A stretch of DNA of 64,000 nt. Origin: an uncultured Alphaproteobacteria bacterium (GTDB lineage Bacteria; Pseudomonadota; Alphaproteobacteria; Rs-D84). The DNA lies in contig CALXMU010000002.1 of the NCBI GenBank assembly GCA_944389555.1, positions 116,433 through 180,432 on the forward strand. Direction: 5' to 3'. This document shows positions 27,592 to 48,408 of this stretch, one piece after another (positions within the stretch are counted from its first letter, which is position 1; each line of letters starts with the position of its first letter). The notes under the pieces were generated by a model. It was not told the DNA's origin and searched no databases. It was given only the letters and a program-made list of their open reading frames with translations. The position numbers and the translations under genes were made by a program.

Positions 27592-27668
27592 CGGGGTGTA
27601 GCTCAGTCTGGTAGAGTGCTTGCTTTGGGAGCAAGATGTCGAAGGTTCGAATCCTTTCGCCCCGACCA
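27592..27668 (+). tRNA. tRNA-Pro (anticodon TGG), with CCA encoded
   Basis: Manually folded cloverleaf. Acceptor CGGGGTG/CGCCCCG, D-stem GCTC/GAGT, anticodon stem CTTGC/GCAAG with loop TTTGGGA, T-arm GAAGG-TTCGAAT-CCTTT. Confidence 0.85.
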
Positions 27669-27680
27669 TTAGAATTCCAA

Positions 27681-27704
27681 GTCGCGCAGTGTCGCGACTT
27701 TTTT
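27681..27704 (+). terminator. Terminator after tRNA-Pro
   Basis: GTCGCG-cagtgt-CGCGAC followed by T6. Confidence 0.6.
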
Positions 27705-27888
27705 CGTGTGTCCGCCGCTACCTGCGGGCCTGACGGCTCATGATTGACTCTGGTATTCCGACAATATACGCAAATCCGCCCATAATATCCCGGAATGTAT
27801 ACAATACCCATTTTCGCGGAGTCAATGGGGTTGAAAATTTATGCTATTTTTCTTATATTCCCAGTGAGAAAAAACAAAGGAAAGTCAA

Positions 27889-28659
27889 ATGGATTTAAAA
27901 TCGAAAAAGATTAGTTTTTACGCATTAATTATTGTCGCTTTGGAGCTAATTTTGTTCGGCTTACTTCATAGTTCTAAAATAGCGGTTTTAGCTCAAAGTA
28001 TTGGTGTAAGTATTTTTGCTGCATATATTTTCTATTTTGTTACGATATATGTACCAGCAGAGAAGAAAAAGAAACAAGCAAATAATATTTTACATAGTCC
28101 TATGACAAATGTAAATTCGCATATGGAAAAAATATTAGCTATATTTAATGGGCTTCTAACGGTTACAAAAGATAATACTATCGCGTGCAAAGATGACAGT
28201 ATCGCAAATACCCAAAAAAAAATTTATTTTAAAATAGATAACTTGTTATATTCAGAAAACATATCATCTTTTATAGCCCACAATGTACGTTTATTAAAGA
28301 AAAATATAGATAAAATTGTAGGGAACAGGTGTTTTTATAATTTGGATGAAGAGGTTATAGATAATATATTACGGTTGCAATCTTCTGATTTTTTAATGCA
28401 TTTGGAACATATGCAACTACAAAGAACAGATGATATAAAAATACACTATGGTGATTTATACAAAGACTTTAAAGAATTTAAACAAATATATGTATCTTTG
28501 GCACGAACTAATATTTTGCCAAAAATAGAAATGATGACAGAACAAGAGCGGAAACATTATAATGTGATTGTGCCGGAACTTATTATGAGATCTCAAAGTC
28601 CTGAAATGTCAAAAGTCAGCGCAATCATCCTAAACAATGTGTGTTATATTCCGAAATGA
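27889..28659 (+). CDS. Island hypothetical protein with two N-terminal TM helices
   Basis: Low GC. Its 3' end overlaps the convergent recombinase gene by 35 bp. Confidence 0.4.
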   Translation: MDLKSKKISFYALIIVALELILFGLLHSSKIAVLAQSIGVSIFAAYIFYFVTIYVPAEKKKKQANNILHSPMTNVNSHMEKILAIFNGLLTVTKDNTIACKDDSIANTQKKIYFKIDNLLYSENISSFIAHNVRLLKKNIDKIVGNRCFYNLDEEVIDNILRLQSSDFLMHLEHMQLQRTDDIKIHYGDLYKDFKEFKQIYVSLARTNILPKIEMMTEQERKHYNVIVPELIMRSQSPEMSKVSAIILNNVCYIPK

Positions 28660-30280
28660 CTTTAAACTCCTGTTCCTGGTCGGCGAAATCCTCGTACTTA
28701 CTTGCAATTTGGAATAATGTTTGCAGGTTGATGTGGGGTGGAATTTTGCTGTCCATGATGTCGTTGATAATCCGTGGCGACAGGTATGCCAGATTCAGGT
28801 ATTTATAAATCGTGCGTTGGTCGCGGTTTTCTGTGGTGGCAAGCGCTTTGACACCAATACCGCTTTCATAGGCTTTCTTGTATTTCCAACCATACGCCAA
28901 GGCTTTGATAAGCATGGTTGCATTCTCTGTTTTTGTTAATAAATCCCGACTACATCCAGCGTTTCTGTGATTTATGCAGGTATGGCTGGACAGATAGACA
29001 ACCTGTTCAATAATAACCTGCTTGCTATCGGGACTTGTGCAATATTCCATTGGGATGGCGTTTGTGTTTATATAGCCGTCTTTTCTGAATACGCCCAATT
29101 TATCCAGGTCTGCAATATTTATGAAAATTGTCAGTTTGTGTTCGTGGTACACAATTCGGTCAATTAGCGCGTGGGCCAATTCATCGCTATATTCCAGTTG
29201 TTTTAATGATAGTCGCGTTGTATCTAGCAACGCACCCATATCAGAGTTTAAAAAGTCCCGAACATTATTACAAATGATTGCGTCCAAATCCCCAGCCGGC
29301 AGAGATGTTGTTTCGCATTTGTAGTATTTATATTGCCGTAATCCCTTGTTTCCAGTTTTATTTTTGAACATTGCACCATCGGCGGTATATATCATGTTGT
29401 GAAACAATAATCCGCCGCGGCAATAACTGGCGCGCCCTTTATGATGATTATTGTCGGTCAGTTTTTGCTGTACGGCGTCAAACAGTTCCTGGGTAATAAT
29501 TGCGGGATGTTGGCCATCAAAGACTTCCCCAGTCGATTTATTTGGCAATTTGCCCAGATAAATTTGATTTTTCAAAATCCGTTCAATGATATTTGCGGTC
29601 ATTTCCCGGCCGCCACGTGTTTCGCCTTTACTGGTCGTCCATTGCTTGCCATGAATCCCAAGGGCCGCAATGCGATCCCGGCAATCTAATAAACTGTGGC
29701 TGGCCAGGTATGTATTGAATATCTTATTTACAGTTTCCCGTTCCGTTTCGTTTACAATCAGTTTTCCAAATTGTATGTCATAGCCCAATGGCGGCACGCC
29801 ACCAACCCATAATCCTTTGGACTTGGTCGCACGCATTTTGTCACGGACGCGTTCACTGGCAACCTCGCGTTCAAACTCTGCAAACGATAGCAGCATATTT
29901 AGCGTCAATTTACCCATTGCAGTACTGGTATCAAAACTTTGTGTAATGCTGACCAGGTTGCAATCGTGTGGTTCAAAATCCTCTTTCATCATGCGCTTAA
30001 AATCATAAATACTGCGCGACAGGCGGTCTATTTTATAAACCAGCACGCAATTTATTTTGCCATCCCGCATATCGTCCAACATTTCTTGCAGACCGGGTCG
30101 GGCCATAGTACCGCCGGAAATGGCCGCATCAGAATATGTTTTTACGTATTCCCAGCCTTGGAAAGCCTGTGACGCGATATAGGATTTACAGGCCAGTTCC
30201 TGGTTATCCAGTGAATTAAACTCCATATCCAGTCCACGTTCTGACGATTTGCGTACGTATATAGCACATTGTATTTTCAT
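28625..30280 (-). CDS. Large serine recombinase (resolvase/invertase catalytic domain plus recombinase and zinc-ribbon-like C-terminal domains)
   Basis: AIYVRKSS (catalytic Ser), ...VLVYKIDRLSRS... and ...GGVPPLGYD; about 551 aa. Start refined to MKIQCAIY. Confidence 0.8.
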   Translation of the reverse strand: MKIQCAIYVRKSSERGLDMEFNSLDNQELACKSYIASQAFQGWEYVKTYSDAAISGGTMARPGLQEMLDDMRDGKINCVLVYKIDRLSRSIYDFKRMMKEDFEPHDCNLVSITQSFDTSTAMGKLTLNMLLSFAEFEREVASERVRDKMRATKSKGLWVGGVPPLGYDIQFGKLIVNETERETVNKIFNTYLASHSLLDCRDRIAALGIHGKQWTTSKGETRGGREMTANIIERILKNQIYLGKLPNKSTGEVFDGQHPAIITQELFDAVQQKLTDNNHHKGRASYCRGGLLFHNMIYTADGAMFKNKTGNKGLRQYKYYKCETTSLPAGDLDAIICNNVRDFLNSDMGALLDTTRLSLKQLEYSDELAHALIDRIVYHEHKLTIFINIADLDKLGVFRKDGYINTNAIPMEYCTSPDSKQVIIEQVVYLSSHTCINHRNAGCSRDLLTKTENATMLIKALAYGWKYKKAYESGIGVKALATTENRDQRTIYKYLNLAYLSPRIINDIMDSKIPPHINLQTLFQIASKYEDFADQEQEFKVISEYNTHCLG

Positions 30281-30398
30281 TGTTTTTACCTCTTTGCGTG
30301 TGTGCATTAGTGCTTACAAAACAATGTAAGTCCAGTGGTTTATTAGACTTGACTTATGGGGCTTTGCGAGCGGTAATTGCAACAAAAAAGGATGTAAA

Positions 30399-30806
30399 AT
30401 GAATGAATTAAAACAAATGTCGCCGGATAAATTGCGGGAACTTTGGCGACTATATTTTCAAAATGAAGCCCGACCACAATTGCGCCCACTGTGGTATAAA
30501 ATTCAATGTGCGCGCACTGGGCAAAAAATTGAGCAACGGCATTTAACACGATTGAATAAGTATGCGGCATCGCCGGAATTATGCACATCGCGGGCAAATC
30601 AAACGAAATATCGAATAAAGCCTGGCACACGCATGATAAAGAAATACAAAGGGCGCGAATATACCATTGAAGCACTGGGCAATGACACTTTCCGATATAA
30701 TGGGGCGATTTATAAAACCCTGTCCGCCATCGCGATGACCATCACAGGTCATAAAGTATCGGGTTATGATTTCTTTGGTCTTTATACAAAAAGGAGCAAA
30801 GAATGA
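30399..30806 (+). CDS. Small basic protein, DUF2924-like serine-recombinase companion
   Basis: 135 aa. Its stop overlaps the ATG of the downstream recombinase fragment in the form ATGA. Family assignment is from memory of the DUF2924 / recombinase gene pairing. Confidence 0.4.
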   Translation: MNELKQMSPDKLRELWRLYFQNEARPQLRPLWYKIQCARTGQKIEQRHLTRLNKYAASPELCTSRANQTKYRIKPGTRMIKKYKGREYTIEALGNDTFRYNGAIYKTLSAIAMTITGHKVSGYDFFGLYTKRSKE

Positions 30807-30910
30807 TTTATGGCTATATACGTGTTTCAACCGATAAACAAGACTGCGCAAATCAAAAAGGAGGTAATTTAAGGAGCCCCACCTGGGGTTGTGTATTGAT
30901 AAACACATAG
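30803..30910 (+). pseudogene. Truncated N-terminus of a second serine recombinase (MIYGYIRVSTDKQDCANQKG...) ending in a premature stop after 35 codons
   Basis: A canonical resolvase N-terminus (YIRVSTxxQ) followed by unrelated sequence and a TAG stop. Confidence 0.5.
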
Positions 30911-31002
30911 AAAGCATCAGAATATAATAAGTTTATTACTGATTTCAAACTGTTATACGAGATACTATCGTAAATGTATCTTACAAAAATGAATTTTAAA
31001 GT

Positions 31003-32370
31003 TTAGTGAAAAGATTTTATTATTCTTTTATAAATCTTATTTTGTTCTTTTATCTGTCCACGAAATAAATCAATTATGCTTTCTGACACATCCATATGTT
31101 TCATACACATGAATTTCAGTATTGTTTTACGAGATAGCTTATATTTTGCCCAGGGATTTTCCAGCATAATTTGTTTTTCTCCAAACGAAAATATTATTGC
31201 TGACAATTTATTATCAAGTAAAAACCTGCCGTTGTGTTGCATACGACAAAACAAATCACTTGGCATAACCGGCTCTATGTCTGTTAAAAAACTTTGTTTT
31301 TTATGTTCAAGAGACATTGCTTTGTGTATAAAATTTATAGGCGCATTCTCAAATATTGGATATCCTTTTTTCCCGTATAACGCATACCATATAATATTAG
31401 AGTTTATACATTTATGATTACCAAATCTATTAAATGTTTCTATTGGGAAAGTTGTTTGGTCTAGAGTGTCCAACTCCGACATATCCAGCCATAAAACAAA
31501 AGGGTTCCCTTTTCTCGCTTGATAACTATATATTTTGTCTCCGTTTTTGTTTTTGCATTTTATGCTGCAAATAAAAGAAATATATCGACTTCTAAAATTT
31601 TCATCATAATAGAAGTCTCCTCCTTTTTTGCTAAAAGACATCAAATCTTCTTCAATATATTCTCCATTAGCCTTATTCTTTGGTCTTGGAAATCCTCCTG
31701 GCGCACATTCTTTTATACCAGTGGTTATCGATCCTTGCTTAAAATTAGTAGTATTTGATCTATGATCAATGGTATTTACTTTTTTATTGCTGCTTGTTGG
31801 CGTTGTGTTTTCTATAAACTGGGGGCTATTTACTTCAATATCAAAACTATCCCCCATAAATGACACCTCAAAATCCGGGGTGGCACCCTCAACCTCTTTT
31901 ATATGTTTAATTGAGAAGCCGCCATTTAATAATTCTGCACAAGCAACTATTTCTGCGATAGCGCCATTTATAATAGTTATATCCTTTGATAATAGATTCG
32001 TATTTTTATGATGATTTAAAAAATCACGTAAATTTTGGTTATTGCTGTCAATGATTGTTTGAATAGCATTTTCTAATTTTTGTCCATGAATTGTTATATC
32101 TGCCTTTGGTTGCATTCCACTATGAAGTTCCCTTATCATTGCCCATATTGGATGAGACAAAGTCCCGTTTTTATATGTCATTTTTGATATTTTTTTATAA
32201 TTATCAATCCCGATGCAATTTAAAAGAAAGATACCATTTTTCATAGAAGCATTACTCCTCCCAAGTTTTTGTGCAATAAATACGCCAAAGAATAACTGTT
32301 TTTTCGATTTGAAAAGGGGCGGTAAAGAATGATATATAGATATATCTCCTTTTTCCGTAATCTTCGGCAT
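31003..32370 (-). CDS. Hypothetical 455-aa protein translationally coupled to the endonuclease gene (TAATG overlap)
   Basis: No recognisable domain. Start refined to MPKITEKGD, whose ATG overlaps the TAA stop of the upstream gene by 1 nt. Very AT-rich. Confidence 0.45.
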   Translation of the reverse strand: MPKITEKGDISIYHSLPPLFKSKKQLFFGVFIAQKLGRSNASMKNGIFLLNCIGIDNYKKISKMTYKNGTLSHPIWAMIRELHSGMQPKADITIHGQKLENAIQTIIDSNNQNLRDFLNHHKNTNLLSKDITIINGAIAEIVACAELLNGGFSIKHIKEVEGATPDFEVSFMGDSFDIEVNSPQFIENTTPTSSNKKVNTIDHRSNTTNFKQGSITTGIKECAPGGFPRPKNKANGEYIEEDLMSFSKKGGDFYYDENFRSRYISFICSIKCKNKNGDKIYSYQARKGNPFVLWLDMSELDTLDQTTFPIETFNRFGNHKCINSNIIWYALYGKKGYPIFENAPINFIHKAMSLEHKKQSFLTDIEPVMPSDLFCRMQHNGRFLLDNKLSAIIFSFGEKQIMLENPWAKYKLSRKTILKFMCMKHMDVSESIIDLFRGQIKEQNKIYKRIIKSFH

Positions 32371-34355
32371 TAATTTAAATTCACATATGCCTTTTTTATA
32401 TATGTATAGTACCAATCAACAGGTGCAAGACCTTCTACTTGATAAGCTTCATCAAGACGTTTGTACAAGTCTTTATAGGTTAGCCCTAAGGCAAGTATGG
32501 CTTTTAAAACATCAATTTCCAGAGGGATTATTTTCATACCAACTTGTGTATATGTCTGGTCTGAACGACTATAATATGTCGCATTCTTTCGTAAACGGAA
32601 ATCTGATATAACGTTTGGATCCAAATGGTTCGTCGCGAATATACAATAAGAGTTATTATTGCGAGTTCTTATCAAATAATCACCCAGGTGTCTGGATACA
32701 GGTTCCATTTCCATCCTGCGTTGGTTTGTGGCATCTGCTAGGGTTGCTTCGATAAGAAGACAGTGTTGCGGATAGTAGTCGGAAGCCTCGTATTCATAAA
32801 CGATATCTGCTTCCCCACCGGCAGCATGCGTTTTTGGCAACAAATCTGCATCTAATGATAATTTCATATACTCTAGGACATTTCCTTTACGTTCGCTGAC
32901 TTTATACCACAATATGCCCAATATATATTCAAAAATAGTTGGAACATCGGCATTGTCTGTTACTGTTTCTTGAACAAAAGAATCGTCTCTTGTTTGAAAT
33001 GCGGTCAACAGATCTTGTATCTTATCGTCCGTAAACAACCGATCTATCAAGAGGTTAAATCTCCGTAATCTCTCATTTTTTATAATCTCTCTTGCAGAGA
33101 CCAAATTATTGGCATTTGTCCCAAGTTCGTGATTGATCCCGTCTAATATGGCGGCTTCGTTTATAGTTAAGCACGGCGAAATTTGTTCTAAGCACGTAAC
33201 TTTGTCGAGATCATTATGTGATTCAAATGCGGACAGGTATAGACAATCAGCGATAGGTACAAAGAAGCTTTTTGGTATAAGATCAAACTCTACTTTATCA
33301 TCGTGGAATAATATCAAATCCGTAAGCTTAAAATATCTTCGATTTAAATCAAAGTAGTCATATAATGTGGCTTTTGTTTTGTTTACATGCATTACTTTAA
33401 AAAATGCCTTTTTTAGATCCGTTTCGTTCTGTACGGAGCTAAAAATACAATCATTTAAAGATTCCTCTGGATTGGCTATAATGGCTTTTTCAGAAAACTT
33501 GTTAAACACAAGACTCAGCCAATATTTCCCTGCCGTATTGGATATGCTTCTAGTCGCCTGATATAATATAGGAACCTTAGAAATGTCTTTATCTAAGAAA
33601 ACATCTTTCAAAGCTAAATACAAGAGGTAATATGGCTTATCATAGTTCCTACTCTTACGATTTATACCTATTTCACAGATCAAACTCTCAGTTACTGCAT
33701 TCTCCAGAAAAACAGTTTGTGCCTGCTGATAATTATCCATTTCAATAATGCGGTTAAAAATAACATCTTCTATTGTCTCTTGTCCGAAACGCAGCCTTTG
33801 AATATGTTCAATAATTTCTTGTGTCGTCCCTTGATTTATGCATAACGGTAGCAAATACATGAATTCCTGAAACGAAAGACTCCCTAGCTTTGACAACACG
33901 TACACCAAAACGACAAGCGGACGCACTGTATAGCCAGCCACAACAGAACTTGTTTTTAACAGCTGCTGTGTAAAAATCATACTATCTTTTTGTATTTGGA
34001 AAGCATTATCATCGTCGAAGTTCCCTTCTAGACTTATGTTCAGCAATTTTCTGCCACTTTCCGTCAGATGTCTATCTTGTGTTATCAGCCCAATTTCAAC
34101 TAGTCCAGATGTTTTTTCTCGTGCATCTTTTGGTTTATTCTTAGCTGCACCTTCAACAAACCCTTTTTCTTGCATATAATCATAATATGCTGATTGAACC
34201 GAATTATTGCCATTCCATACAGCATCCTTATTCTTGGGCAAGTTCCAAAAATCATTTAAGAGCAGAAGCTGTTGTTCTATTGTTTTATTGAAATTTTTGG
34301 TTCTGAAACTAGTTGTTCCTAGGTTCCAACAAAAACTTTTATACGGAATCGGCAT
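32370..34355 (-). CDS. Type IIS restriction endonuclease or nicking enzyme of the AlwI/N.BstNBI/PleI/MlyI family
   Basis: 661 aa. The C-terminal catalytic block THAAGGEADIVYEYE...EAT...RRMEMEPVSRH matches the remembered AlwI-family block (THAAGNQPDMEIIYED...EPVTRH in N.BstNBI). Lies immediately downstream of two D12-class m6A methyltransferases. Confidence 0.6.
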   Translation of the reverse strand: MPIPYKSFCWNLGTTSFRTKNFNKTIEQQLLLLNDFWNLPKNKDAVWNGNNSVQSAYYDYMQEKGFVEGAAKNKPKDAREKTSGLVEIGLITQDRHLTESGRKLLNISLEGNFDDDNAFQIQKDSMIFTQQLLKTSSVVAGYTVRPLVVLVYVLSKLGSLSFQEFMYLLPLCINQGTTQEIIEHIQRLRFGQETIEDVIFNRIIEMDNYQQAQTVFLENAVTESLICEIGINRKSRNYDKPYYLLYLALKDVFLDKDISKVPILYQATRSISNTAGKYWLSLVFNKFSEKAIIANPEESLNDCIFSSVQNETDLKKAFFKVMHVNKTKATLYDYFDLNRRYFKLTDLILFHDDKVEFDLIPKSFFVPIADCLYLSAFESHNDLDKVTCLEQISPCLTINEAAILDGINHELGTNANNLVSAREIIKNERLRRFNLLIDRLFTDDKIQDLLTAFQTRDDSFVQETVTDNADVPTIFEYILGILWYKVSERKGNVLEYMKLSLDADLLPKTHAAGGEADIVYEYEASDYYPQHCLLIEATLADATNQRRMEMEPVSRHLGDYLIRTRNNNSYCIFATNHLDPNVISDFRLRKNATYYSRSDQTYTQVGMKIIPLEIDVLKAILALGLTYKDLYKRLDEAYQVEGLAPVDWYYTYIKKAYVNLN

Positions 34356-34369
34356 ACTAAACTTCCTTT

Positions 34370-35287
34370 TTAATAATTTATTATCAAAACTTCCTCGCTA
34401 GAATCTGTCTTGTCCTTAGTTTGATAATTGGAGTTCGCATAAGTATATCTTAATGGAATTACTTTGTATTTGTCAATATTATTGCTGAGCCACTGTAGCA
34501 AGACACTATTTTCCTTACCTTTACTTCTCAACACATTAGAAAGCGCAAACTTCGTTCCATATTGATGAAGCCTATCCAGAAACTTTAGGAGGTCTTTTTC
34601 TGTTTGAATATTCCAACCGCCTTGTTCATTATATGTGGCGCAAGTAATTAAATATGGAGGATCTACATATACAAAATCATCTGGACCTAATGCTTCTATA
34701 TCAAAATCTCGAAAATCTTTACACATAAACCGGCACTCCTGCTCATGCAATCTATCGATGAAAGAAGACAACTTTGTCGCCATATTGGAATTAAAGTCTC
34801 TTTTCCCCACAGGCAAATTAAAATCGCCATGAGCGTTAAAACGTATCTGATTGTTAAATGCATAAACAATCAAAACATATAAGACCACATAATAGTAATA
34901 GTCCTCGTTTAACTTCGTATTAAAATCGTCACGCAACTTTAGAAATTTATCTTTATTATACGGTCCCAATCCCGTACTACTGTCACAACCATAATAATCG
35001 TATCCATGCAAACTAACGAGTGAAAGATTGTATTTATCTATTATTTGATAAACCCAATCAAATACGGCTTTTTTATCAAGATTTTTTAGTGTGTTATACA
35101 GACAAATAAGCTCTCTATTGAGGTCATTATATATCACAGAATTAGACTGAACATTTATTCCAACATTGCAGCCGCCACAAAACAAATCCACAAAAGTATT
35201 TATTTTCTTTGGGAACAGAGGCAAAATCTGGGATAAAAGTTTTGCCTTTCCACCGGTATAATTAAGAGGGGATTGTATGAAAGGCAA
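34370..35287 (-). CDS. Dam-family (D12 class) N6-adenine DNA methyltransferase
   Basis: Motifs SPLNYTGGKAKLL (Dam PFLKWAGGK-like), FCGGCNV and FVYVDPPY. Confidence 0.75.
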   Translation of the reverse strand: MPFIQSPLNYTGGKAKLLSQILPLFPKKINTFVDLFCGGCNVGINVQSNSVIYNDLNRELICLYNTLKNLDKKAVFDWVYQIIDKYNLSLVSLHGYDYYGCDSSTGLGPYNKDKFLKLRDDFNTKLNEDYYYYVVLYVLIVYAFNNQIRFNAHGDFNLPVGKRDFNSNMATKLSSFIDRLHEQECRFMCKDFRDFDIEALGPDDFVYVDPPYLITCATYNEQGGWNIQTEKDLLKFLDRLHQYGTKFALSNVLRSKGKENSVLLQWLSNNIDKYKVIPLRYTYANSNYQTKDKTDSSEEVLIINY

Positions 35288-36322
35288 TTATGTTCCTTTT
35301 GGGTAGCATGTACATAAGAACAATCTCTCCTCATTGTCTTCTATATCGGATTTTCCTGTGGTAAAGGCTTTGTATTCTGTGGAAAAGATTTTGACAGTTC
35401 CTTTGGCACTTAGAATACGCATAATGTCTTCATCCGATATTTTTGCGTTGGATCGATCGTTGCCTTTTTGGGACATGTTATTATATGATAACAATATATA
35501 TTTTGCATTTATACTCTGAATTAAATCTTCGAAAGATTTAGTAGCTTGATTAGTGCAATACTTGCTTTTTATGTTGGAACGATCCATCTTTTTTGCAACA
35601 CCGTACACTGTTGGTTTCTGCCATCTGGCAACATTTTCAAGTAAATGGTAGGCATCGCAATACTGTCTGGAATTATATGGCGGATCTATGTATACCAAAT
35701 CTGCATATATATCTTTTACCAACTGATTGGCGTCAAGATTAAAACATTTGTTCAGTTTATTATTCGTTTTTGGCGCAAGTGGCACATATAATTCCAAAGC
35801 AGTGTCATAAGAGCTACCTTTTCTATAAGCATCATAATGCCCGCATGTCTGAGCTATTTTGTCCATCGCATATAGCAAAGATGTAATCAGAATAGCGCGT
35901 TCTCGTTCATTTATAAATTTTTGTTTAAACAATCGCTCAATATCACTGCGTATATAGCCAATCTTCGAACAGTCTTCCTTGCTGAAATATGTATCCGCAA
36001 AGTTTTGTGTCATGTAGTTAGATTTGCATGATTCAAGGGCATTGTACCGCTTTATCAAGTCTATAATCTTTTTTTTACTATAAGATTCTGTCCCAAACCA
36101 AGCATAGTTACAGATATAATTACTATACATCAAATCATTTGTGATTATGGCTAATTTATCACAAAAAGCTGACGAAACCGCACCCGTTCCAGCAAAAATA
36201 TCTGCCAGCGAAGTAATCCCTGGACATTCCTTTGCGACGATCTCACTGATAAATGGCAACAATTTGTATTTGTTGCCTAAATAACGTCGATTGTTAATTT
36301 TGGACGTTTTATAGCCCTGCAT
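35288..36322 (-). CDS. Second D12-class N6-adenine DNA methyltransferase
   Basis: Motif I DIFAGTGAV and motif IV LVYIDPPYN. Its stop abuts the start of the downstream MTase. Confidence 0.65.
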   Translation of the reverse strand: MQGYKTSKINNRRYLGNKYKLLPFISEIVAKECPGITSLADIFAGTGAVSSAFCDKLAIITNDLMYSNYICNYAWFGTESYSKKKIIDLIKRYNALESCKSNYMTQNFADTYFSKEDCSKIGYIRSDIERLFKQKFINERERAILITSLLYAMDKIAQTCGHYDAYRKGSSYDTALELYVPLAPKTNNKLNKCFNLDANQLVKDIYADLVYIDPPYNSRQYCDAYHLLENVARWQKPTVYGVAKKMDRSNIKSKYCTNQATKSFEDLIQSINAKYILLSYNNMSQKGNDRSNAKISDEDIMRILSAKGTVKIFSTEYKAFTTGKSDIEDNEERLFLCTCYPKGT

Positions 36323-36583
36323 TATCCTTTCCCTTCATTAGAGAATTTAGAACAAAACGTGTATATAAGTCAAGAAACAAACGACATGGGCTCGGGCAAG
36401 ATGACACGTAATTTGTCAAGCAACCTAAAAACACAATTTAGGCTTGTAGCTCTCCATTCATAATATTCCCTCATATCTAGGAACGGAGTTCTAGGCTTAG
36501 CAGTTCATCTGGCACTATTCACACAATAAATATTGTACTCAGATTCGCTGTCCTGCGGCATACTTGCATATCGAATTACTCTA

Positions 36584-36611
36584 TTGATATTTCTAGGGTT
36601 TTATGTATAAT
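36584..36611 (+). promoter_or_regulatory. Sigma70-like promoter of the KAP NTPase gene (TTGATA, 16 bp spacer, TATAAT)
   Basis: Located in the divergent intergenic region. Confidence 0.35.
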
Positions 36612-36633
36612 GGCAAAAAAATAGGATATAATC

Positions 36634-38271
36634 GTGGCTAATAACAATACGGTATCTGTTGACGTTTGGGGAAACGATAAATTGGACATTAGGGAAAAGG
36701 TCATTGGATTTGCCGACATATTGAAGCAGGAGAAATTTACAGAACACGGTACATCCAGGGTATATTCTATTTCTGCGGAATTTGGTATTGGGAAAACGTT
36801 CTTTTGCGAAAAGTTACGTGATGTGTTAGAGCAAGATGGCGTACCTGTATCTATGCTGAACATATGGAAAATGGATTTTTACGAAAACCCGCTTGTCCCG
36901 TTACTTATTAAGCTACAGGATACATATACGCAATATTACAACACTCCTGAAGGTTTCCCAAATCCGAAAACACTTTTAAATGCGTTTAAATCCTTGGCGG
37001 CAGGAATTTCTGTTGAGGCACATGCCCCATTGTTCGGGAAAATAGTTATTGATGGTGAAAAAATCATCAGTCGTCATGAAAACCTAAAAAAGACTGCAGA
37101 GGAGAATAGTATCTATTCCGAATATAAACAATTTAAAACAGAATTAGATAATTTGAAATCGTTTTTAGGCAATTGGGCACGTGAAGCAAATAACCCTATT
37201 ATTATCATAATTGATGAACTTGACCGTTGCCGTCCGGATTATGCTGTTAAAACACTGGAAATACTAAAGCATTTCTTTGATATTCCAGGTTTTGTATTTA
37301 TTTTGGCTATAGATGAGGAACAATTAAAGAACTCTGTCGAAACATTGTTTGGCACAAAAAATTTTGATGGCTATAAACGCAAATTTATAAATAACTCGTT
37401 TTTATTACCAGCGCCAGACAAGGTAAAATTTACAGATTATTTATATGAAAAATCTGGATTGGCTGACATTGTGAAACAAATAGAGGCAAATAAACAAGAT
37501 TTAGTATTTAAAACAGTTATCAAGAATCTAGAACTCAGACATTTTAACAGAGACAAGTCTCTCAGTGCTGAGCAAACTTTTAATAAAAATCAAACAACAG
37601 AAAATATAATTAAACGGTATTTTGCTGCGTACAGTATATGGTTTCAATTTTCTTTGCGACGAATGGAACAAGTGTTTGATAGGCTGGTATTATTCTCTAA
37701 AAACATACTAAGTAGCAATGAATTATATTCACCCGATTTGGCTGTTTTATTGGTGTGTTTACATGAGTTTGATTTAAAAATATATGATAAACTACGATTG
37801 TCTTCGTTTAGAGTATATGGTCAGCATGGAGGCCTATTGAGACACATTTATAATACCAGTAGAAACGATTTCTCTTTTGCGAGATCTGTATATGCCGATA
37901 AAGCAGACGATATGTTCAGCACATTAAATCGCACTTTGATACCTAAAGTTCCTGAAATCCAGGGCTTCTCGACAACCGAACCAACTGGACAAACGTATAT
38001 AGTTATTATTCACGATGATGTTGATAGATTCTTTGTTGCAGAAGAATCACAAAAACATCCTTTAGCGTGGATTGTTGAAATACAAGATTTTGAGTCTGGC
38101 GTACGATCCATGGTACAAAACAATGGACGAATAGCAGTAATAACCAATTCAAAACGAGATGCTGCTTGGAAAGATGGGCCTGCTGATATAGATACAGCAA
38201 GTCAATTTAATCTTGAACAATTCAGGAAGAATTATTTTGATAAGATGGATTTTGTATCTAATTTTAAATAG
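36634..38271 (+). CDS. KAP-family P-loop NTPase
   Basis: Walker A GIGKTFF, the hallmark IIIIDELDRCRPDYAV (Walker B plus DRC), and a hydrophobic insert region. GTG start. Confidence 0.7.
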   Translation: MANNNTVSVDVWGNDKLDIREKVIGFADILKQEKFTEHGTSRVYSISAEFGIGKTFFCEKLRDVLEQDGVPVSMLNIWKMDFYENPLVPLLIKLQDTYTQYYNTPEGFPNPKTLLNAFKSLAAGISVEAHAPLFGKIVIDGEKIISRHENLKKTAEENSIYSEYKQFKTELDNLKSFLGNWAREANNPIIIIIDELDRCRPDYAVKTLEILKHFFDIPGFVFILAIDEEQLKNSVETLFGTKNFDGYKRKFINNSFLLPAPDKVKFTDYLYEKSGLADIVKQIEANKQDLVFKTVIKNLELRHFNRDKSLSAEQTFNKNQTTENIIKRYFAAYSIWFQFSLRRMEQVFDRLVLFSKNILSSNELYSPDLAVLLVCLHEFDLKIYDKLRLSSFRVYGQHGGLLRHIYNTSRNDFSFARSVYADKADDMFSTLNRTLIPKVPEIQGFSTTEPTGQTYIVIIHDDVDRFFVAEESQKHPLAWIVEIQDFESGVRSMVQNNGRIAVITNSKRDAAWKDGPADIDTASQFNLEQFRKNYFDKMDFVSNFK

Positions 38272-38560
38272 GTCCTCTGTCCAAAGGCACGCATTTTTCT
38301 GCATTCGCTGCAAATATGTTGTATGTAGAGTATATTTCCCTGATACGCCTCAATAAATTCCCTGTTATTTTACGGAAATTTTGGTGGAAAGTGCGGAAAT
38401 CTGATGTTTGTGCACGGACGTGCGGTCAAAATTCGCTGTAGATTCCCTGTTAATCCCTGAAAATGAGTATTCTGGTATCCGTTTTTTAGCAACTAAATAC
38501 CGACCGACCAGAAAATTCAAACCGTCGCAAATGCGGCGGTTTTAATTTTCTGCTTGGAAC

Positions 38561-38917
38561 GTGCATATTCAAACAAAAGTCGTTAATTTAGGTTATGCTG
38601 ATTTATCCAACGTTCGTGAAATAAAATGGCCTTCAAAAGAAATTAGTGGCTTAAATAGTACTAAAAATCTACCGTCCGTTTTGGATTTTAGTCATACAGA
38701 TGAAGTTAATTTATCTGAGGCAGATTTGTCTATGGTACGCAAAATAAAATGGCTGATAGAAAAAGTTCTCGGTGATTATTGCTTGGCAAATTGGCCGCAG
38801 CATATTCAGAAATCATATAAATATTGGAAAGGAAGTTTAGCAATAAAAAACGCTGTTAAAAACCAAGTACAAGATATGGGTACAAAAATACAACAAATTT
38901 TTATGGACCGTAATTAA
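38561..38917 (+). CDS. Hypothetical protein with an internal duplication ([Y/E]ADLSxVRxIKW x2)
   Basis: ORF only. No family recognised. Confidence 0.3.
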   Translation: MHIQTKVVNLGYADLSNVREIKWPSKEISGLNSTKNLPSVLDFSHTDEVNLSEADLSMVRKIKWLIEKVLGDYCLANWPQHIQKSYKYWKGSLAIKNAVKNQVQDMGTKIQQIFMDRN

Positions 38918-39022
38918 GAATAGTTTGTATAAAGCATATAATACAAAAGGTGTTTGAATCTGGTTGAATCCTGTTTTTTATACTTTATAATCAATATAAA
39001 ACAAATATTAGGAGTTAGAGAA

Positions 39023-39364
39023 ATGTACAGATTTCCAGGATTATTTTTGGTGGGGGCTTCGTTTGTTTTATGTGCTTGTGCTGAAAATAAGGCAGAAGTT
39101 ATTAGCGGCACTTTGACTATGGGGCATGAAGTTAGGGCTTTCGTTCCAGATGGTCAAGATAAGGAATTTTGGCTGATAGATAAATCAGGGGATTTATACG
39201 AACAATATCAAAAAGTTGCGCCGATAGAATCTGGAGCTTATATACCGGTTCTGGCAGAATTAAAAGTAACAGAATTACCAAAAATGCAGGACGGTTTCGG
39301 GGCAGAATATGACGGTACATATGATGTCATTGAAACCATTTCAATAACCCCGATAAAAAAATGA
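39023..39364 (+). CDS. Lipoprotein (113 aa)
   Basis: RBS AGGAG and lipobox LCAC. Start refined from the ORF-track position. Confidence 0.5.
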   Translation: MYRFPGLFLVGASFVLCACAENKAEVISGTLTMGHEVRAFVPDGQDKEFWLIDKSGDLYEQYQKVAPIESGAYIPVLAELKVTELPKMQDGFGAEYDGTYDVIETISITPIKK

Positions 39365-39373
39365 GGTGATACT

Positions 39374-39937
39374 ATGAAAAAAATATCTATAATTGCATTT
39401 TCTTTATTACCGACAATTGCTTTTGCTAGTGATGCTGAAGATTGGAAAATTTATTTAAGAGCAGACGCAGGTATAACGTATTCTGATTTAACCGTAGATG
39501 ATTATGATTTGGGCGGTTTTCAGGGTATGTTTAATTTTGTCGCCGGCGGTCAGAAAGGGCCTTGGCGCGCAGAATTAGCGTATCAGGAACGCGCAACTGT
39601 AAGTGAATTATTTAGTTCGTTATTGACGCAAACTATGGCTTCTATGGAACAGCACGCTTTATTGCTGAATGGTTATTATGATGTTTGGTCTTCAAAATAT
39701 TTCGCTTGGTACGTTGGGGCGGGTGCGGGCTTAAATAGTTATGAAAAAGTAATTACCTATCAAAACACAGGAACAGAGGTTAGTGAAGACGGTTATTCTG
39801 CTATCCTTGGAGCCTATACAGGTTTGAGTCTAAACTTTGAACATATAGGAATTGATTTAGGGGTTGATTATTATTATACCTATAAACCAAATTTAAATTC
39901 TTTGGTACCCAAAATCGGTTTGCGTGTGATTTTCTAG
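39374..39937 (+). CDS. Small outer-membrane beta-barrel protein (OmpW/porin-family-like)
   Basis: Signal peptide, alternating amphipathic beta-strands and a C-terminal ...GLRVIF. Confidence 0.55.
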   Translation: MKKISIIAFSLLPTIAFASDAEDWKIYLRADAGITYSDLTVDDYDLGGFQGMFNFVAGGQKGPWRAELAYQERATVSELFSSLLTQTMASMEQHALLLNGYYDVWSSKYFAWYVGAGAGLNSYEKVITYQNTGTEVSEDGYSAILGAYTGLSLNFEHIGIDLGVDYYYTYKPNLNSLVPKIGLRVIF

Positions 39938-39955
39938 GTTGAAATAGTTTTATTA

Positions 39956-39988
39956 AAGACGGGCTTTCTGCCCGTCGATTTTTATTTG
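39956..39988 (+). terminator. Rho-independent terminator
   Basis: GACGGGC-tttct-GCCCGTC followed by a T-run. Confidence 0.6.
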
Positions 39989-40029
39989 ATTATACTTTGT
40001 TTTTGTGGTATACTTATACTAAATAAGTT

Positions 40030-40057
40030 TGTCGGGTCAAGTGTCCCGACATTTTTT
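40030..40057 (+). terminator. Second terminator-like hairpin
   Basis: TGTCGGG-tcaagtgt-CCCGACA followed by T6. Confidence 0.5.
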
Positions 40058-40066
40058 GTTTTTAGG

Positions 40067-40088
40067 TCCCGTAATACGGGCTTTTTTT
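40067..40088 (+). terminator. Third terminator-like hairpin, directly abutting the ATG of the lysozyme-like gene
   Basis: CCCGT-aat-ACGGG followed by CT7, immediately before ATGGAG. Confidence 0.45.
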
Positions 40089-40622
40089 ATGGAGATTTTT
40101 ATGAAAGATAAAAACTTTGAGGAAGCAATAGAAAAACTTTTTATAAATGAGGGCGGGTATACACCAGGTGCTAATCAAATTAAAGACTTTCCAACTAATA
40201 TGGGGATTCAGCAGAAGACTTTGGATAGATATAATTTGATGTTTCCATATAAGAATTTTCCGAAAGATGTTAAATTATTACAGAAAAATCAAGCATATGA
40301 AATATATAAGGAAATGTATTGGGACAACACAAAGATTCCGCAGATAAAAAATGCACGTATTAGAAATGCAGTTTTTGATATGAACGTTATGGGGGGCGCG
40401 GGCATAGTCATACAACGGGCATTAAATGGTTTTCTTGGCGCTGGTTTAATAGAGGATGGGGTAATCGGTAATTCAACGTTGAAAGGGATAAATTCTATTT
40501 CAGATGATAGTGTAAATCCTTTTATGGATATATTAAAGCTGGTAAGAATAAATTATCTGAAGGGTACTATAAATTGGTCGACCGCGAAAAACGGTTGGAT
40601 AAATAGAACAAATAAATATTAA
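40089..40622 (+). CDS. GH108-like lysozyme N-domain plus peptidoglycan-binding domain protein (phage-endolysin / secretion-activator type)
   Basis: EKLFINEGGYTPGANQ...MGIQQKTLDRY resembles the GH108 N-terminal motif (EGGY...GIT). The C-terminal region resembles a PG_binding_3 domain. Confidence 0.45.
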   Translation: MEIFMKDKNFEEAIEKLFINEGGYTPGANQIKDFPTNMGIQQKTLDRYNLMFPYKNFPKDVKLLQKNQAYEIYKEMYWDNTKIPQIKNARIRNAVFDMNVMGGAGIVIQRALNGFLGAGLIEDGVIGNSTLKGINSISDDSVNPFMDILKLVRINYLKGTINWSTAKNGWINRTNKY

Positions 40623-40718
40623 CTAAGGATTAGTTTCAAAAAAACATCCATTGAATTTTATATGTAGTATACTATAATAAACATATAATAATGTATTTGT
40701 TGAAAGGGGGGAATATAA

Positions 40719-41336
40719 ATGCCAAGAGTAAAAAGTGAAAAATCTAAAAAAGCGAAATCAAGTCAGGGTACAAATCTAATTACAAATTCTGTTAAGCGCT
40801 TATATAATCAAAGCGCACCACTATTGATATGTGAGGCTTTATTATTTGGCATAGCCGCAATATTTATGATAATTAAACCAGTTGCGGTTCTAACGGCGTT
40901 AACGTTTGTGATAGGTGTTGCGCTGGTATTGTTTGGTTTGTACAGAACTATAGCGGGTTTTATCGTTTCTCGTGATGTTGGGGGTGGTTGGTTTGATGTG
41001 GTGTTTGGTTTGGTAAACGTTGTTTTAGGCGTTTTATTCTGTATTTACCCAGTTGGATCGGTAGTTAGTTTGGTTTACATTTTTGTGTTACTGTTTTTAT
41101 TCAAATCTTTACGTGCGTTGATATTTTCAATAAATATGATACGCGCCAAATTTGGGCATTATTGGTTTGATTTGATAATGTCTATTATATTGATTGCGCT
41201 AGCGGTTTTCTTATTGTTTTATCCGGTTGCTGGTGCGGTCGTTATGATTTATTATTTGGCGATAACATTATTACTATATGCGGCGGCAGATTTATATATG
41301 TATATAGAATTGCTGCGTTTGAAAAAATTAGTATAA
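40719..41336 (+). CDS. Multi-pass membrane protein (HdeD/DUF308-like repeats)
   Basis: Six predicted TM helices with repeated G/L-rich segments. Confidence 0.4.
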   Translation: MPRVKSEKSKKAKSSQGTNLITNSVKRLYNQSAPLLICEALLFGIAAIFMIIKPVAVLTALTFVIGVALVLFGLYRTIAGFIVSRDVGGGWFDVVFGLVNVVLGVLFCIYPVGSVVSLVYIFVLLFLFKSLRALIFSINMIRAKFGHYWFDLIMSIILIALAVFLLFYPVAGAVVMIYYLAITLLLYAAADLYMYIELLRLKKLV

Positions 41337-41411
41337 ATAATATAAATTATTTCTTTTACAACTCTTGGGGCATCCAAGAGTTGCTTTTTTATGTCTCAAA
41401 ATTAAATACTG

Positions 41412-41442
41412 AAAAGCCCCGCCAAAAATGACGGGGCTTTTT
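41412..41442. terminator. Bidirectional terminator that also serves tRNA-Arg
   Basis: AAAGCCCCG-ccaaaaatga-CGGGGCTTT. Confidence 0.5.
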
Positions 41443-41448
41443 AAAAAC

Positions 41449-41525
41449 TGGCGCGCCCTGCAGGATTCGAACCTGCGACCTGCGGATTAGAAATCCGATG
41501 CTCTATCCAGCTGGGCTAAGGGCGC
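41449..41525 (-). tRNA. tRNA-Arg (anticodon TCT), with CCA encoded
   Basis: The reverse complement folds as GCGCCCT-TA-GCCC..GAGC-A-TCGGA-TTTCTAA-TCCGC-AGGTC-GCAGG-TTCGAAT-CCTGC-AGGGCGC-G-CCA. Confidence 0.85.
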
Positions 41526-41675
41526 GTTAGCGCAATTCTATAATATTTATATTCAAATTTCAAGCCAAACACAGATTTTTATTGTTATAAATACATCTTC
41601 TTTTTGTGAAATCGTTCCTGTGTAGTAAAAAATTTACTTGTGTTATACTTACGGCATGTAAAAAGGGAGTTTCGT

Positions 41676-42146
41676 ATGAAAAAATTTTGGTTGTTTATTT
41701 TGGCTATATTTATATCGTTCTTGCCCGGAATCATAGGAATGATATTCTCGCCAAGCGGTATGTCCGATATGTGGTATAACGCATTGGCTAAGTCTGTTCT
41801 AACGCCAGATGGGTGGGTGTTCGCCGTAGTTTGGCCAATTTTATATTTATTACTTGGAATTGCGCTTTACCTTATATTTATAGATAAAACAAAGTATAGT
41901 AAGGCAAAAGCCTATTGGTTGTTTGGCGTAAATATGTTCTTAAATGCTTTGTGGTCATATGTATTTTTTGGCTTAAATTTTATCGGTATTGCTTTAATAG
42001 TTCTTATTGCTTTAATCGGATTTACAATCTGGATGATGCGGTCATTTAAAGCAATAAATCATGCGGCATATTGGTTGATATGGCCTTATTTAATTTGGCT
42101 AATATTTGCTTTATATCTAAATGGAATGGTATCTTTATTAAATTAA
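41676..42146 (+). CDS. tspO: TspO/MBR-family tryptophan-rich sensory protein
   Basis: Five TM helices, W-rich, with WPILYLLLGIALYL and WSYVFFG segments. Start refined to MKKFW after an RBS. Confidence 0.55.
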   Translation: MKKFWLFILAIFISFLPGIIGMIFSPSGMSDMWYNALAKSVLTPDGWVFAVVWPILYLLLGIALYLIFIDKTKYSKAKAYWLFGVNMFLNALWSYVFFGLNFIGIALIVLIALIGFTIWMMRSFKAINHAAYWLIWPYLIWLIFALYLNGMVSLLN

Positions 42147-42176
42147 AAAAAAACCGCCAATTTGGGCGGTTTTTTA
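42145..42176. terminator. Bidirectional terminator
   Basis: A9-CCGCC-aatttg-GGCGG-T6. Confidence 0.55.
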
Positions 42177-42509
42177 AATCTTTAAAATTCTAGCCTTTGG
42201 GTCGCCTATATTTAAGTATTTTAACCCCAACTCTTCAACATAATCAGAACTATATCCCTGTAATAATTCAATGTGTCGACGAATTGCTTTTAATTCGGCT
42301 TGCTCTGCCGCAAGTTGTTCTTGTTCGCCATTTAATCGCCATATGTTCATTATTAAACGTTGAACGTTTACTTCGCCCCAGAACATACGTACAAACATGA
42401 ACGCGGCGAATATCAGCAGCAGTATACCAAATTTCCCGTATATACCGTCTGACCAAGCACGTTTCATAAATCCAAAGAAATTTTTGATTTTTTCCTTCAT
42501 CGGTGGCAT
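42174..42509 (-). CDS. FtsB/DivIC-like septum formation initiator
   Basis: N-terminal TM helix followed by a coiled coil (QLAAEQAELKAIRRHIELLQ). Confidence 0.5.
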   Translation of the reverse strand: MPPMKEKIKNFFGFMKRAWSDGIYGKFGILLLIFAAFMFVRMFWGEVNVQRLIMNIWRLNGEQEQLAAEQAELKAIRRHIELLQGYSSDYVEELGLKYLNIGDPKARILKI

Positions 42510-42519
42510 TATATCACAA

Positions 42520-43446
42520 ATGTTAGTACATAATCAAATTTTTGGTGCACCGTTGGCAGGAATTACTGATAAACCGTTTAGAAGGCTTATTCGTACTTTC
42601 TCTCCGAAAGCACCGTTATATACAGAAATGATATCATGTCATTCATTGGTTGGCGCGCATAAAAACTGCTTACGTAATTTTGATAGATATGATGATGAGG
42701 GTAATATAGGTGCTCAAATATTTGGAGCTGACGCAAAATTGATGGCCGACGCCGCACGTATATTACAAGATTCTGGTGCCTCGTGGATTGATATAAACAT
42801 GGGGTGTCCCGTTCCAAAGGTTGCCACCAGAAGCGGTGCCGGTGCAAATTTAATGCGTGACCATCGCTTGGCAGAAAAAATAATGAAGGCGGTAGTTGGT
42901 GCAGTGCAAATTCCCGTCTCAATTAAAACAAGACTGGGCTGGGATGATTCCCATCGTGATTGGGCCGATTTAATTGGTATTGCCGCAGATTGCGGAGTTA
43001 GTTTTGCTGCTTTGCACGGTCGTACGCGTGCTCAATTATATACAGGAAACGCCCAATTACCTGAAATTACAAAGAATATTAAAATACCTGTTATAGGAAA
43101 CGGTGATATAAAAAATATAAATGATATAAAGAAAGTAATAAATTTGGGTTATAGCGGGGTAATGATAGGACGAGGATTGTTAGGGCGTCCCTGGCTATTA
43201 GGTGAATTAGAGGGAATATGTAAGGCACCGACTAATATAGGTACTGTTGCACTGAAACATTTTGAATATATGTTGGAATATTATGGTGAAAAGAATGCTA
43301 CTCAAATGTTCAGAAAGCACGCAGCGTGGTATTCTGCAGGGATTCCAAATTCTGCGGAGTTTAGAATAACGGTAAATCAAATATCTGGCGCAAAGGAATT
43401 AAAGGAAGAAATTTGTAAATTTTGGGGTTGCGAAGAGGGTATATAG
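42520..43446 (+). CDS. tRNA-dihydrouridine synthase (DusB-like)
   Basis: APLAGITDKPFRRL..., the FMN-binding TIM-barrel motif IDINMGCP and the catalytic Cys region. Start refined to MLVHNQ, divergent from the ftsB-like gene. Confidence 0.75.
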   Translation: MLVHNQIFGAPLAGITDKPFRRLIRTFSPKAPLYTEMISCHSLVGAHKNCLRNFDRYDDEGNIGAQIFGADAKLMADAARILQDSGASWIDINMGCPVPKVATRSGAGANLMRDHRLAEKIMKAVVGAVQIPVSIKTRLGWDDSHRDWADLIGIAADCGVSFAALHGRTRAQLYTGNAQLPEITKNIKIPVIGNGDIKNINDIKKVINLGYSGVMIGRGLLGRPWLLGELEGICKAPTNIGTVALKHFEYMLEYYGEKNATQMFRKHAAWYSAGIPNSAEFRITVNQISGAKELKEEICKFWGCEEGI

Positions 43447-43481
43447 ATTCTATGATTATCTAAAATAAGGGATAAAAAGAT

Positions 43482-44342
43482 ATGACAGAAAATATAAATA
43501 CAGAAGCACAAAACGAAATGACTGTCGGCGAAATTTTACGTAACGCTCGTACAACTGGGCGACGTAAGCGTGAAATTCAAACCATTTCTAAGCAGTTATG
43601 TATACGCGAAGAATTTTTACAGGCATTGGAAGACGGAAAGTATGATGTAATTCCAGAAACAGTTTATATTTTGGGGTTTGCACGGAACTATGCCATGGAG
43701 TTAGGGTTAGACCCAGATGAAATAGTTGTTAAATTAAAACGCGAGATGGGGCTAGTATCTGACGCTAATGAAGATGAAGAAGAAGAAAAAGCTGCTAATG
43801 TGTCTGTTACAGATGATGCCGGTCAAGAAAACAAATTTATTCGTATCATAAAACAATGTGGTAAGTTTATTCATAAAAATTGGTTATGGTTTACGATAGG
43901 TGTTATTGCAGTAGTTGCAATAGTTTTATCAATTTTACTGATAGGCGGTTCTGATACAGATACGGCTGCGCTGGATAATTCTGTTGTAACACAAGTAGAA
44001 ACGGTTGTAGAACCAGAATATACGGTGGAAGTTCGTGAACGGTTCGGGACAGAAAACGCAGAAAGTGCGTCAATAATATTACAGGCTACGCAGGAATCCT
44101 GGGTAAAAATAGAAGACGCGCGTGGGAATACGGTATTTAGCCGTGTATTAGTTCCTGGGGATATTTATTATGTTCCAAGTGGTAATGGGTATAAAGCCGT
44201 ATTTGGTAATGCCGGTGGAATGGACGTGTGGGTAAATGGCGTTTTGGCGCCGAAGCAGGGGGCTGATCATGTGCGAGTCGCTGATATTGCGATGACGCCA
44301 GAGCGGTTGTTACCTCAAGCGGTACCAGTAACAGCGGAATAA
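43482..44342 (+). CDS. rodZ: RodZ-like cytoskeleton protein (XRE-type HTH, TM helix, C-terminal DUF4115-like beta domain)
   Basis: HTH region VGEILRNARTT...LCIREEFLQALEDG, one TM helix and a C-terminal beta-rich domain. Confidence 0.55.
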   Translation: MTENINTEAQNEMTVGEILRNARTTGRRKREIQTISKQLCIREEFLQALEDGKYDVIPETVYILGFARNYAMELGLDPDEIVVKLKREMGLVSDANEDEEEEKAANVSVTDDAGQENKFIRIIKQCGKFIHKNWLWFTIGVIAVVAIVLSILLIGGSDTDTAALDNSVVTQVETVVEPEYTVEVRERFGTENAESASIILQATQESWVKIEDARGNTVFSRVLVPGDIYYVPSGNGYKAVFGNAGGMDVWVNGVLAPKQGADHVRVADIAMTPERLLPQAVPVTAE

Positions 44343-44345
44343 AAA

Positions 44346-44370
44346 CAATCCCGCATAAGCGGGATTTTTT
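44346..44370 (+). terminator. Rho-independent terminator
   Basis: AATCCCGC-ataa-GCGGGATT followed by T6. Confidence 0.6.
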
Positions 44371-44417
44371 ATGTATATAGTATTGCATTTTCGTATAAAT
44401 TATCTATATTTGACATT

Positions 44418-47276: not shown

Positions 47277-47307
47277 AGTTTTAATATTAAAGCCTAAGGA
47301 GAAGAAC

Positions 47308-47826: not shown

Positions 47827-47827
47827 A

Positions 47828-48396: not shown

Positions 48397-48408
48397 ATAG
48401 ATATCTGT

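Follow-up and report, generated by a model that had tools for sequence, protein, structure and literature searches.

The restriction operon and its last gene

The window analysed here, the whole stretch of 64,000 nucleotides (nt) from an uncultured Alphaproteobacteria bacterium, contains a type IIS restriction-modification (RM) operon, and the last gene of this operon (the target gene below) is the subject of this study. The operon consists of two D12-class methyltransferase genes (M1 and M2), the gene of an AlwI-family restriction endonuclease (REase), and the target gene, all on the same strand, in agreement with the M-M-R layout of the original prediction. The target had been described there as a 455-amino-acid (aa) product that is translationally coupled to the REase and almost certainly co-expressed with it. 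The features are listed below.

31003-32370, minus strand: longest open reading frame (ORF) of the target, 455 aa (from the ORF listing; coordinates as in the original prediction)
31003-32244, minus strand: conserved core ORF from Met43, 413 aa, probable true product, as judged from the starts of homologues and a poorly modelled N-terminus
32255-32262, minus strand: Shine-Dalgarno-like sequence GGGAGGAG, 10-12 nt 5' of the Met43 ATG (32244-32242)
32190-32196, minus strand: A7 tract in the 5' part of the target gene (A6 in the related locus L046, L046:8040-8102)
32368-32372, minus strand: TAATG in the sequence, in which the REase stop codon TAA (32372-32370) shares one base with the first ATG of the target (32370-32368)
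32370-34355, minus strand: AlwI-family type IIS REase (Pfam RE_AlwI, 3.8e-71)
34370-36322, minus strand: two D12-class N6-adenine DNA methyltransferases, M1 (35288-36322) and M2 (34370-35287), assigned from library profile matches

The target ORF was accepted as a real gene because its length is unexpected by chance at a guanine-plus-cytosine (GC) content of 31.6%, and because it has homologues and a ratio of nonsynonymous to synonymous substitution rates (dN/dS) of 0.26-0.32. The dN/dS was 0.32 against the 96% identical copy in the near-identical twin locus L001 and 0.26 against the 93% identical copy in L046, compared to 0.19 for the REase. These values indicate that the gene is functional and under purifying selection. 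Public metagenome assemblies contained the exact target protein in 67 blocks. The interval from the REase stop codon to the target gene showed neither a promoter-like nor a terminator-like site on the minus strand, which makes co-transcription with the RM operon plausible and, as far as the sequence can tell, likely.

The one-base overlap that had been reported between the REase stop codon and the target ATG was seen in the sequence, and it was identical in L001 and L046. The sister elements L049 and L047, which do not carry the target gene, have TAACA at this position, and the ATG of the long form is thus confined to elements carrying the target gene. The alignments of the two closest homologues start at query residue ~42-43, and those of most other aligned homologues start at residues 42-47. 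In the AlphaFold model of the target, residues 1-44 mostly had a predicted local distance difference test score (pLDDT) below 50. Furthermore, the TAATG start is without a Shine-Dalgarno-like sequence, and GGA-rich motifs similar to GGGAGGAG lie 5' of other genes of the island. L049, in which a different gene follows the REase, shares the DNA of the window for 39 nt beyond the REase stop codon and reads TAACAG, followed by an in-frame stop, at the position of the target ATG. Codons 1-13 of the long form therefore belong to the backbone spacer, outside the exchanged cassette.

These results point to Met43, with its own ribosome-binding site, as the probable true start and make translational coupling to the REase doubtful. 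The ORF and a plausible co-transcription thus survive from the original prediction, and the length of the product and its coupling are less secure than stated there. The 455-aa form is less probable, but has in its favour that the frame is open over the 42 additional codons, for which we estimate a chance of ~5%, and that its ATG is confined to target-carrying elements. The 126 nt upstream of Met43 are 100% identical between the window and L001, so that the substitution pattern cannot decide the start. In L046, the A6 run shifts the frame, and the gene was called from Met64; this could be an assembly error and was not used for the decision. The same frameshift could also reflect decay or a slippage-prone on/off switch.

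Protein family, conserved residues and predicted fold

The target, in which the original prediction had recognised no motifs, gave no above-threshold match in Pfam, NCBIfam, PHROGs, PADLOC, or the PDB sequences. The scans of the four profile collections yielded nothing but sub-threshold noise (Ubiquitin_IARS1, 0.0049; SorA, 0.0047), and none of their nuclease families matched the target. A PDB sequence search with the target alone or with the family profile gave nothing meaningful, and phage genomes searched by tblastn gave no match. A word-indexed homologue search returned only the 96% identical twin and, when rerun with the family profile, three proteins. When 1.84 billion cluster representatives were searched exhaustively with HMMER, 98 relatives passed E <= 1e-3. 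These are mostly of 340-390 aa, are thinly spread over many phyla, and matched no shared Pfam family. By rough contrast, homologues of the REase number more than 3,700 at E <= 1e-20, in a different database and at a different cut-off.

The members of this family share a well-defined set of residues. K271 and Q284 were invariant in a 50-member alignment, and E140, F167, E179, V180, W294, D296, W328, Y332, G333, G381, F383, E404, and P406 were near-invariant. The position of D166 was D or E in 49 of the 50 aligned relatives. Taken together, E140, D/E166, E179, K271, Q284, and D296 were kept in 49-50 of the 50 relatives and in 28 of 29 further genomic copies. Position 183, at +4 from the strand-3 acid E179, is K or R in 40 of the 50 and Pro in the target; the invariant K271 is a candidate substitute for the missing catalytic Lys. 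Two of the closest relatives (P0003 and P0005) showed signs of decay. P0003 was split into ORFs of 273 and 76 aa in five contigs (L041:10001-11124, also L042-L045), and the nuclease-core region of P0005 was replaced by an Asn-rich low-complexity tract (L009:181-1203).

The AlphaFold model of the target (pLDDT 83) showed a weak PD-(D/E)xK restriction-endonuclease-like core. The parts of the protein are located as follows.

31471-31980, minus strand: PD-(D/E)xK-like nuclease core, residues ~131-300, from the fold model and family conservation
31951-31953 (E140), 31873-31875 (D166), and 31834-31836 (E179), minus strand: key residues of the core
31558-31560 (K271), 31519-31521 (Q284), and 31483-31485 (D296), minus strand: further key residues of the core
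31006-31515, minus strand: C-terminal half, residues 286-455, the best-conserved part of the family (WYAxYGxKGxPIFE, HxGRF, ENP)

The predicted core has the alpha-beta-beta-beta-alpha-beta order of the PD-(D/E)xK superfamily (helix, three strands, helix, strand). The order of its elements fits the canonical core, with a helix at residues 131-149 that carries E140, a strand at 167-171 after P165-D166, and a strand at 174-181 that carries E179. The acidic residues of the superfamily, that is, Glu in helix 1, Asp in strand 2, and Asp or Glu in strand 3, are thus present as E140, D166, and E179, with P-D opening strand 2 and E-V in strand 3. The segment GATPDFEVSFMGDSFDIEV (residues 162-180; GATPDFEV...DIEV), earlier noted as loosely PD-(D/E)xK-like and without Lys, is backed in this respect by both the structure prediction and the family conservation. 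A Foldseek search of the model against the PDB gave no match at E <= 0.001; the structural neighbours of PD-(D/E)xK type were the CdiA-CT toxin of B. pseudomallei (4g6v), archaeal Hjc resolvases, HindIII, and BsmI. In the target family, as in CdiA-CT, the best-conserved Lys is located far downstream of the acidic residues. The C-terminal half had no fold match in the PDB. What is new is an unannotated family with a C-terminal domain of no structural precedent, and what is known is the catalytic superfamily and the genomic setting.

The variable slot, the tRNA-Pro island and the family loci

The operon is part of an integrated island, whose features are given below.

27592-38512: whole integrated island, ~10.9 kb, low GC, with its left end at the 3' end of tRNA-Pro (27592-27668)
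28625-30806: recombination module, with a large serine recombinase (28625-30307, minus strand) and a DUF2924 protein (30399-30806, plus strand)
30807-32330, minus strand: swapped cargo cassette that holds the target, the sole stretch of island backbone not shared with L049 (blastn)
36634-38271, plus strand: KAP-family P-loop NTPase, PADLOC candidate PDC-S20 (2e-66), another cargo gene of the island

Comparison of sister elements showed that the position behind the REase is variable. By blastn, L049 matched the window at 38512-32331 and 30806-28720 only. It encodes an 82% identical REase within the same KAP-M-M-R-[X]-DUF2924-recombinase backbone, where an 837-aa AAA_13 ATPase fills the slot (L049:6483-8996). 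In L046, an 89% identical REase is followed by the target gene at 93% identity, and the recombinase/DUF2924 module flanks the slot in both L046 and L049. The REases of L047 and L055 are 83% and 78% identical, respectively, and are followed by a 152-aa protein (L055:4425-4877); a 777-aa AAA_13 ATPase comes next in L047 (L047:8024-10796), and the contig of L055 ends after the 152-aa gene. A widespread, 57% identical REase in L051-54 precedes a PUA-like metallophosphatase and a HAD hydrolase (L051:6987-9382). The AAA_13 proteins of L049 and L047 matched the PADLOC candidate PDC-S06 and a PrrC model (~1e-12), and the gap behind the REase gene was 0-41 nt in L049, L047/L055, and L051-54. The GC content was 0.316 in the cassette, 0.363 in the REase gene, and 0.433 in the recombinase gene, and the contrast between cassette and REase was counted as a sign of separate origin. 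Judged from these loci, the position after AlwI-type M-M-R cassettes looks like a recurrent slot for a fourth gene.

We then compared the loci of the target family, with 27 further loci (Acidobacteriota, Alphaproteobacteria, Cyanobacteria, Spirochaetia, and others) retrieved by a profile from a 12-sequence subset. When the REase, M1, M2, and the KAP NTPase of the window were used in tblastn, matches were found only in the near-identical twin L001 and at none of the 35 other family loci. Relatives on Paraburkholderia, Burkholderia, and Bacillus megaplasmids stand alone as hypothetical genes, and their annotated neighbours include no AlwI enzyme. The target was also not similar to the REase's catalytic domain (BLASTP, E = 0.73). 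These results demonstrate that the family occurs independently of the REase. The 108 flanking ORFs at the family loci matched 103 different Pfam families, and an all-against-all BLAST of the neighbours found no conserved partner gene beyond same-genus synteny.

The four closest relatives (34-43% identity) all adjoin a serine recombinase, and the orientations differ every time. P0002 follows a small resolvase and stands beside Uzume, PDC-S18, and type I RM genes (L006); P0003 adjoins a recombinase-DUF2924 module and a type I RM system (L041); P0004 follows a recombinase 60% identical to that of the window; and P0005 is convergent with another recombinase. We read this adjacency as marking a cargo lineage of these elements and not a recombination factor, because the orientations differ and L049 keeps the recombinase module without the target gene. 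In L033, from a Desulfarculaceae metagenome-assembled genome (L033:3220-10384), a type III Res-Mod operon ends with a distant member of the family, on the same strand and after a gap of 41 nt. This gives the family a second, independent position behind an RM system, here of another type. A further member lies beside SIR2 and HerA (L026), and others lie near methyltransferases. Together, the neighbourhoods of the family show a defence-island-type association.

The island itself carries, in order, an unknown 256-aa ORF, the large serine recombinase, DUF2924, the target gene, R, M2, M1, and the KAP NTPase. CCGACCA is found at both of its ends (27662-27668 and 38504-38510). L038 and L001 match the window only from 27592 to 38512/38513 and diverge beyond, with the contig of L038 stopping at 27592. 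Each variant of the right flank past 38512 opens with a hairpin plus T-run, which was read by eye as a terminator.

Several further observations concern this region. The KAP NTPase gene is divergent from the RM operon and is kept in most of the sister elements found (L001, L037-40, L046, L047, and L049). In L047, a GmrSD-type (type IV, modification-dependent) enzyme lies between the KAP NTPase and M-M-R (L047:1716-3818), so that these loci have a second variable position. The start of M2 is ambiguous, with a TTG at 35287 abutting M1 (305 aa) and a downstream start that gives 273 aa; the 273-aa form was chosen by gene callers in several assemblies (L037, L039, and L040). The 256-aa ORF (27889-28659) has a GC content of 0.288 and a hydrophobic N-terminus and converges on the 3' end of the recombinase gene with an overlap of 35 nt. 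It had no above-threshold match in Pfam or PADLOC and was also called in L037 and L038. Just past the right end of the island, L046 continues with the sequence of window positions 48719-49068 (FtsJ-like gene), and ~10 kb of the window is thus absent from L046. The stretch 38513-48400, which is of low GC to ~42 kb and carries genes for GH108, DUF308, and TspO as well as tRNA-Arg (41449-41525), might be another inserted element.

Favoured reading and alternatives

The reading that we favour, at a probability of about 55%, is that the target is an autonomous effector of an uncharacterised family, with a PD-(D/E)xK core and a C-terminal half, which rides behind the RM operon, is made mainly from Met43, and acts alone as a nuclease under C-terminal control. 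The original prediction had listed an unrelated defence protein travelling in the operon as one of its options, and the evidence favours this one. Its transcription would come by read-through from the promoter of the RM operon, and translation would start chiefly at Met43, with the ribosome-binding site that lies there. Judged from its conserved residues, it may act on nucleic acid as a metal-dependent nuclease, with the acidic cluster of E140, D166, and E179 supported by K271 and Q284. The C-terminal half would provide target recognition or control of activation, through which a nuclease without a methylase would spare the host; for this, the protein could recognise modified or foreign DNA, or remain latent until an infection occurs. 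Rather than completing the REase, the target would give the island a second layer of defence or element addiction that works by a separate mechanism.

Single-gene anti-phage systems with a PD-(D/E)xK nuclease have been described as PD-T7-1 and PD-T7-5 (Vassallo et al. 2022, tabulated in PMC10952713). Like the target family, they are one-gene proteins with a nuclease fold in defence islands and mobile elements. Their PADLOC profiles gave a weak match (~1e-5) in 3 of 50 distant relatives and none for the target or its three closest full-length relatives, P0002, P0004, and P0005; homology, if any, would be restricted to the core.

An alternative that we consider unlikely is that the target is a companion of the RM system, a latent second-line nuclease that is released or activated when the REase is blocked or fails. 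The anticodon nuclease PrrC is kept silent in this way by the EcoprrI RM complex. PrrC and RloC effectors, like the target, are encoded by accessory genes tightly inside or after RM operons, and the AAA_13 occupants of the slot are PrrC-like. The repeated use of this slot by closely linked accessory genes, the family member that ends the type III operon of L033, and the restriction of the TAATG overlap to target-carrying elements are also consistent with such a role. However, the target has neither an ABC-ATPase nor an anticodon-nuclease domain and no homology to PrrC, and at ~25 of 31 non-redundant family loci the immediately adjacent genes are not RM genes. The RM partners of the family fall into three types that are unrelated to each other, which speaks against a specific protein-protein interface, and adjacency is weak evidence since defence genes cluster anyway. 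A bolder form of this idea, to which we give slightly less credence still, would make the target a latent nuclease with a novel C-terminal sensor that is co-transcribed with the RM genes and becomes active once restriction has been evaded or the REase inhibited. The position behind R would then be a dedicated second-line slot, filled interchangeably by the target family, PrrC-like AAA_13 ATPases, or PUA-like phosphoesterases.

It is improbable that the target serves the mobile element, either as an excision or directionality factor or as a DNA-processing nuclease that works alongside the serine recombinase, in the manner of XisH and XisF. The recombinases beside the closest relatives would suit such a function, but orientation and spacing to the recombinase vary in every case, and in the wider family a recombinase lay within 10 kb at just 1 of 27 genome loci. 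The score against XisH was no better than those of generic nucleases, and there was no Pfam XisH match. Furthermore, the recombinase module of L049 is 82% identical in DNA to that of the window and has an AAA_13 ATPase in the slot instead, so the target is dispensable for this module.

We regard as similarly improbable that the target is a catalytically inactive derivative, in which the fold is kept as a nucleic-acid-binding or regulatory module, or a gene in decay. The replacement of K183 by Pro would fit this reading, as would the split P0003, the Asn-rich core of P0005, and the frameshifted copy in L046. On the other hand, dN/dS is ~0.3 over the whole target gene, the identical protein recurs in the 67 assembly blocks, and the six best-conserved polar residues are all present.

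The original prediction had also proposed a specificity or control factor, and this finds no footing, as no Pfam family lies above threshold for the target. Controller (C) proteins are typically of ~80-100 aa, and the target has 413-455 aa and a predicted nuclease-like fold. A controller protein was also rejected for want of a helix-turn-helix, and the Pfam searches likewise gave the target no recognition domain of the S-subunit kind. Two further candidates were tried and rejected, namely an anti-restriction gene, for which support was limited to one plasmid neighbourhood, and a toxin-antitoxin pair, as there was no conserved small neighbour.

The proposal of a second catalytic subunit, in which the AlwI protein of a heterodimeric type IIS enzyme nicks one strand and the target cuts the other, has a precedent in BspD6I, whose small subunit resembles its own large subunit and is encoded by an adjacent ORF (PMC3017599). 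The C-terminal catalytic region of the window REase aligns to the nickase N.BspD6I. Like the small subunit of BspD6I/BstNBI, the target has a PD-(D/E)xK-like core, and its ORF comes immediately downstream of that of an AlwI/BstNBI-family large subunit; in the window, both ORFs share a strand, and their stop and start codons overlap. It is nevertheless very improbable, because the target is unlike the large-subunit catalytic domain and more than twice the size of the small subunit, is not co-inherited with AlwI enzymes outside near-identical copies of the island, and is exchanged for unrelated genes in sister loci, behind REases 78-83% identical and, over all the loci compared, 57-83% identical. 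The original prediction had named homologues that never stand next to AlwI-family enzymes as grounds for refutation, and outside those near-identical copies this is what the 35 other family loci showed.

If the autonomous-effector reading is true, the target would be one more unannotated single-gene defence candidate, missing from Pfam and PADLOC 2.0. For the annotation of RM systems, the case indicates that an overlap with the REase stop codon need not make a gene a subunit. The comparison of sister elements presents the position behind the RM genes as a swap-in slot for different effectors, and this slot, together with the small tRNA-Pro island, could be mined for more defence genes. It is also a tractable setting in which to study possible cooperation between RM systems and the effectors placed behind them.
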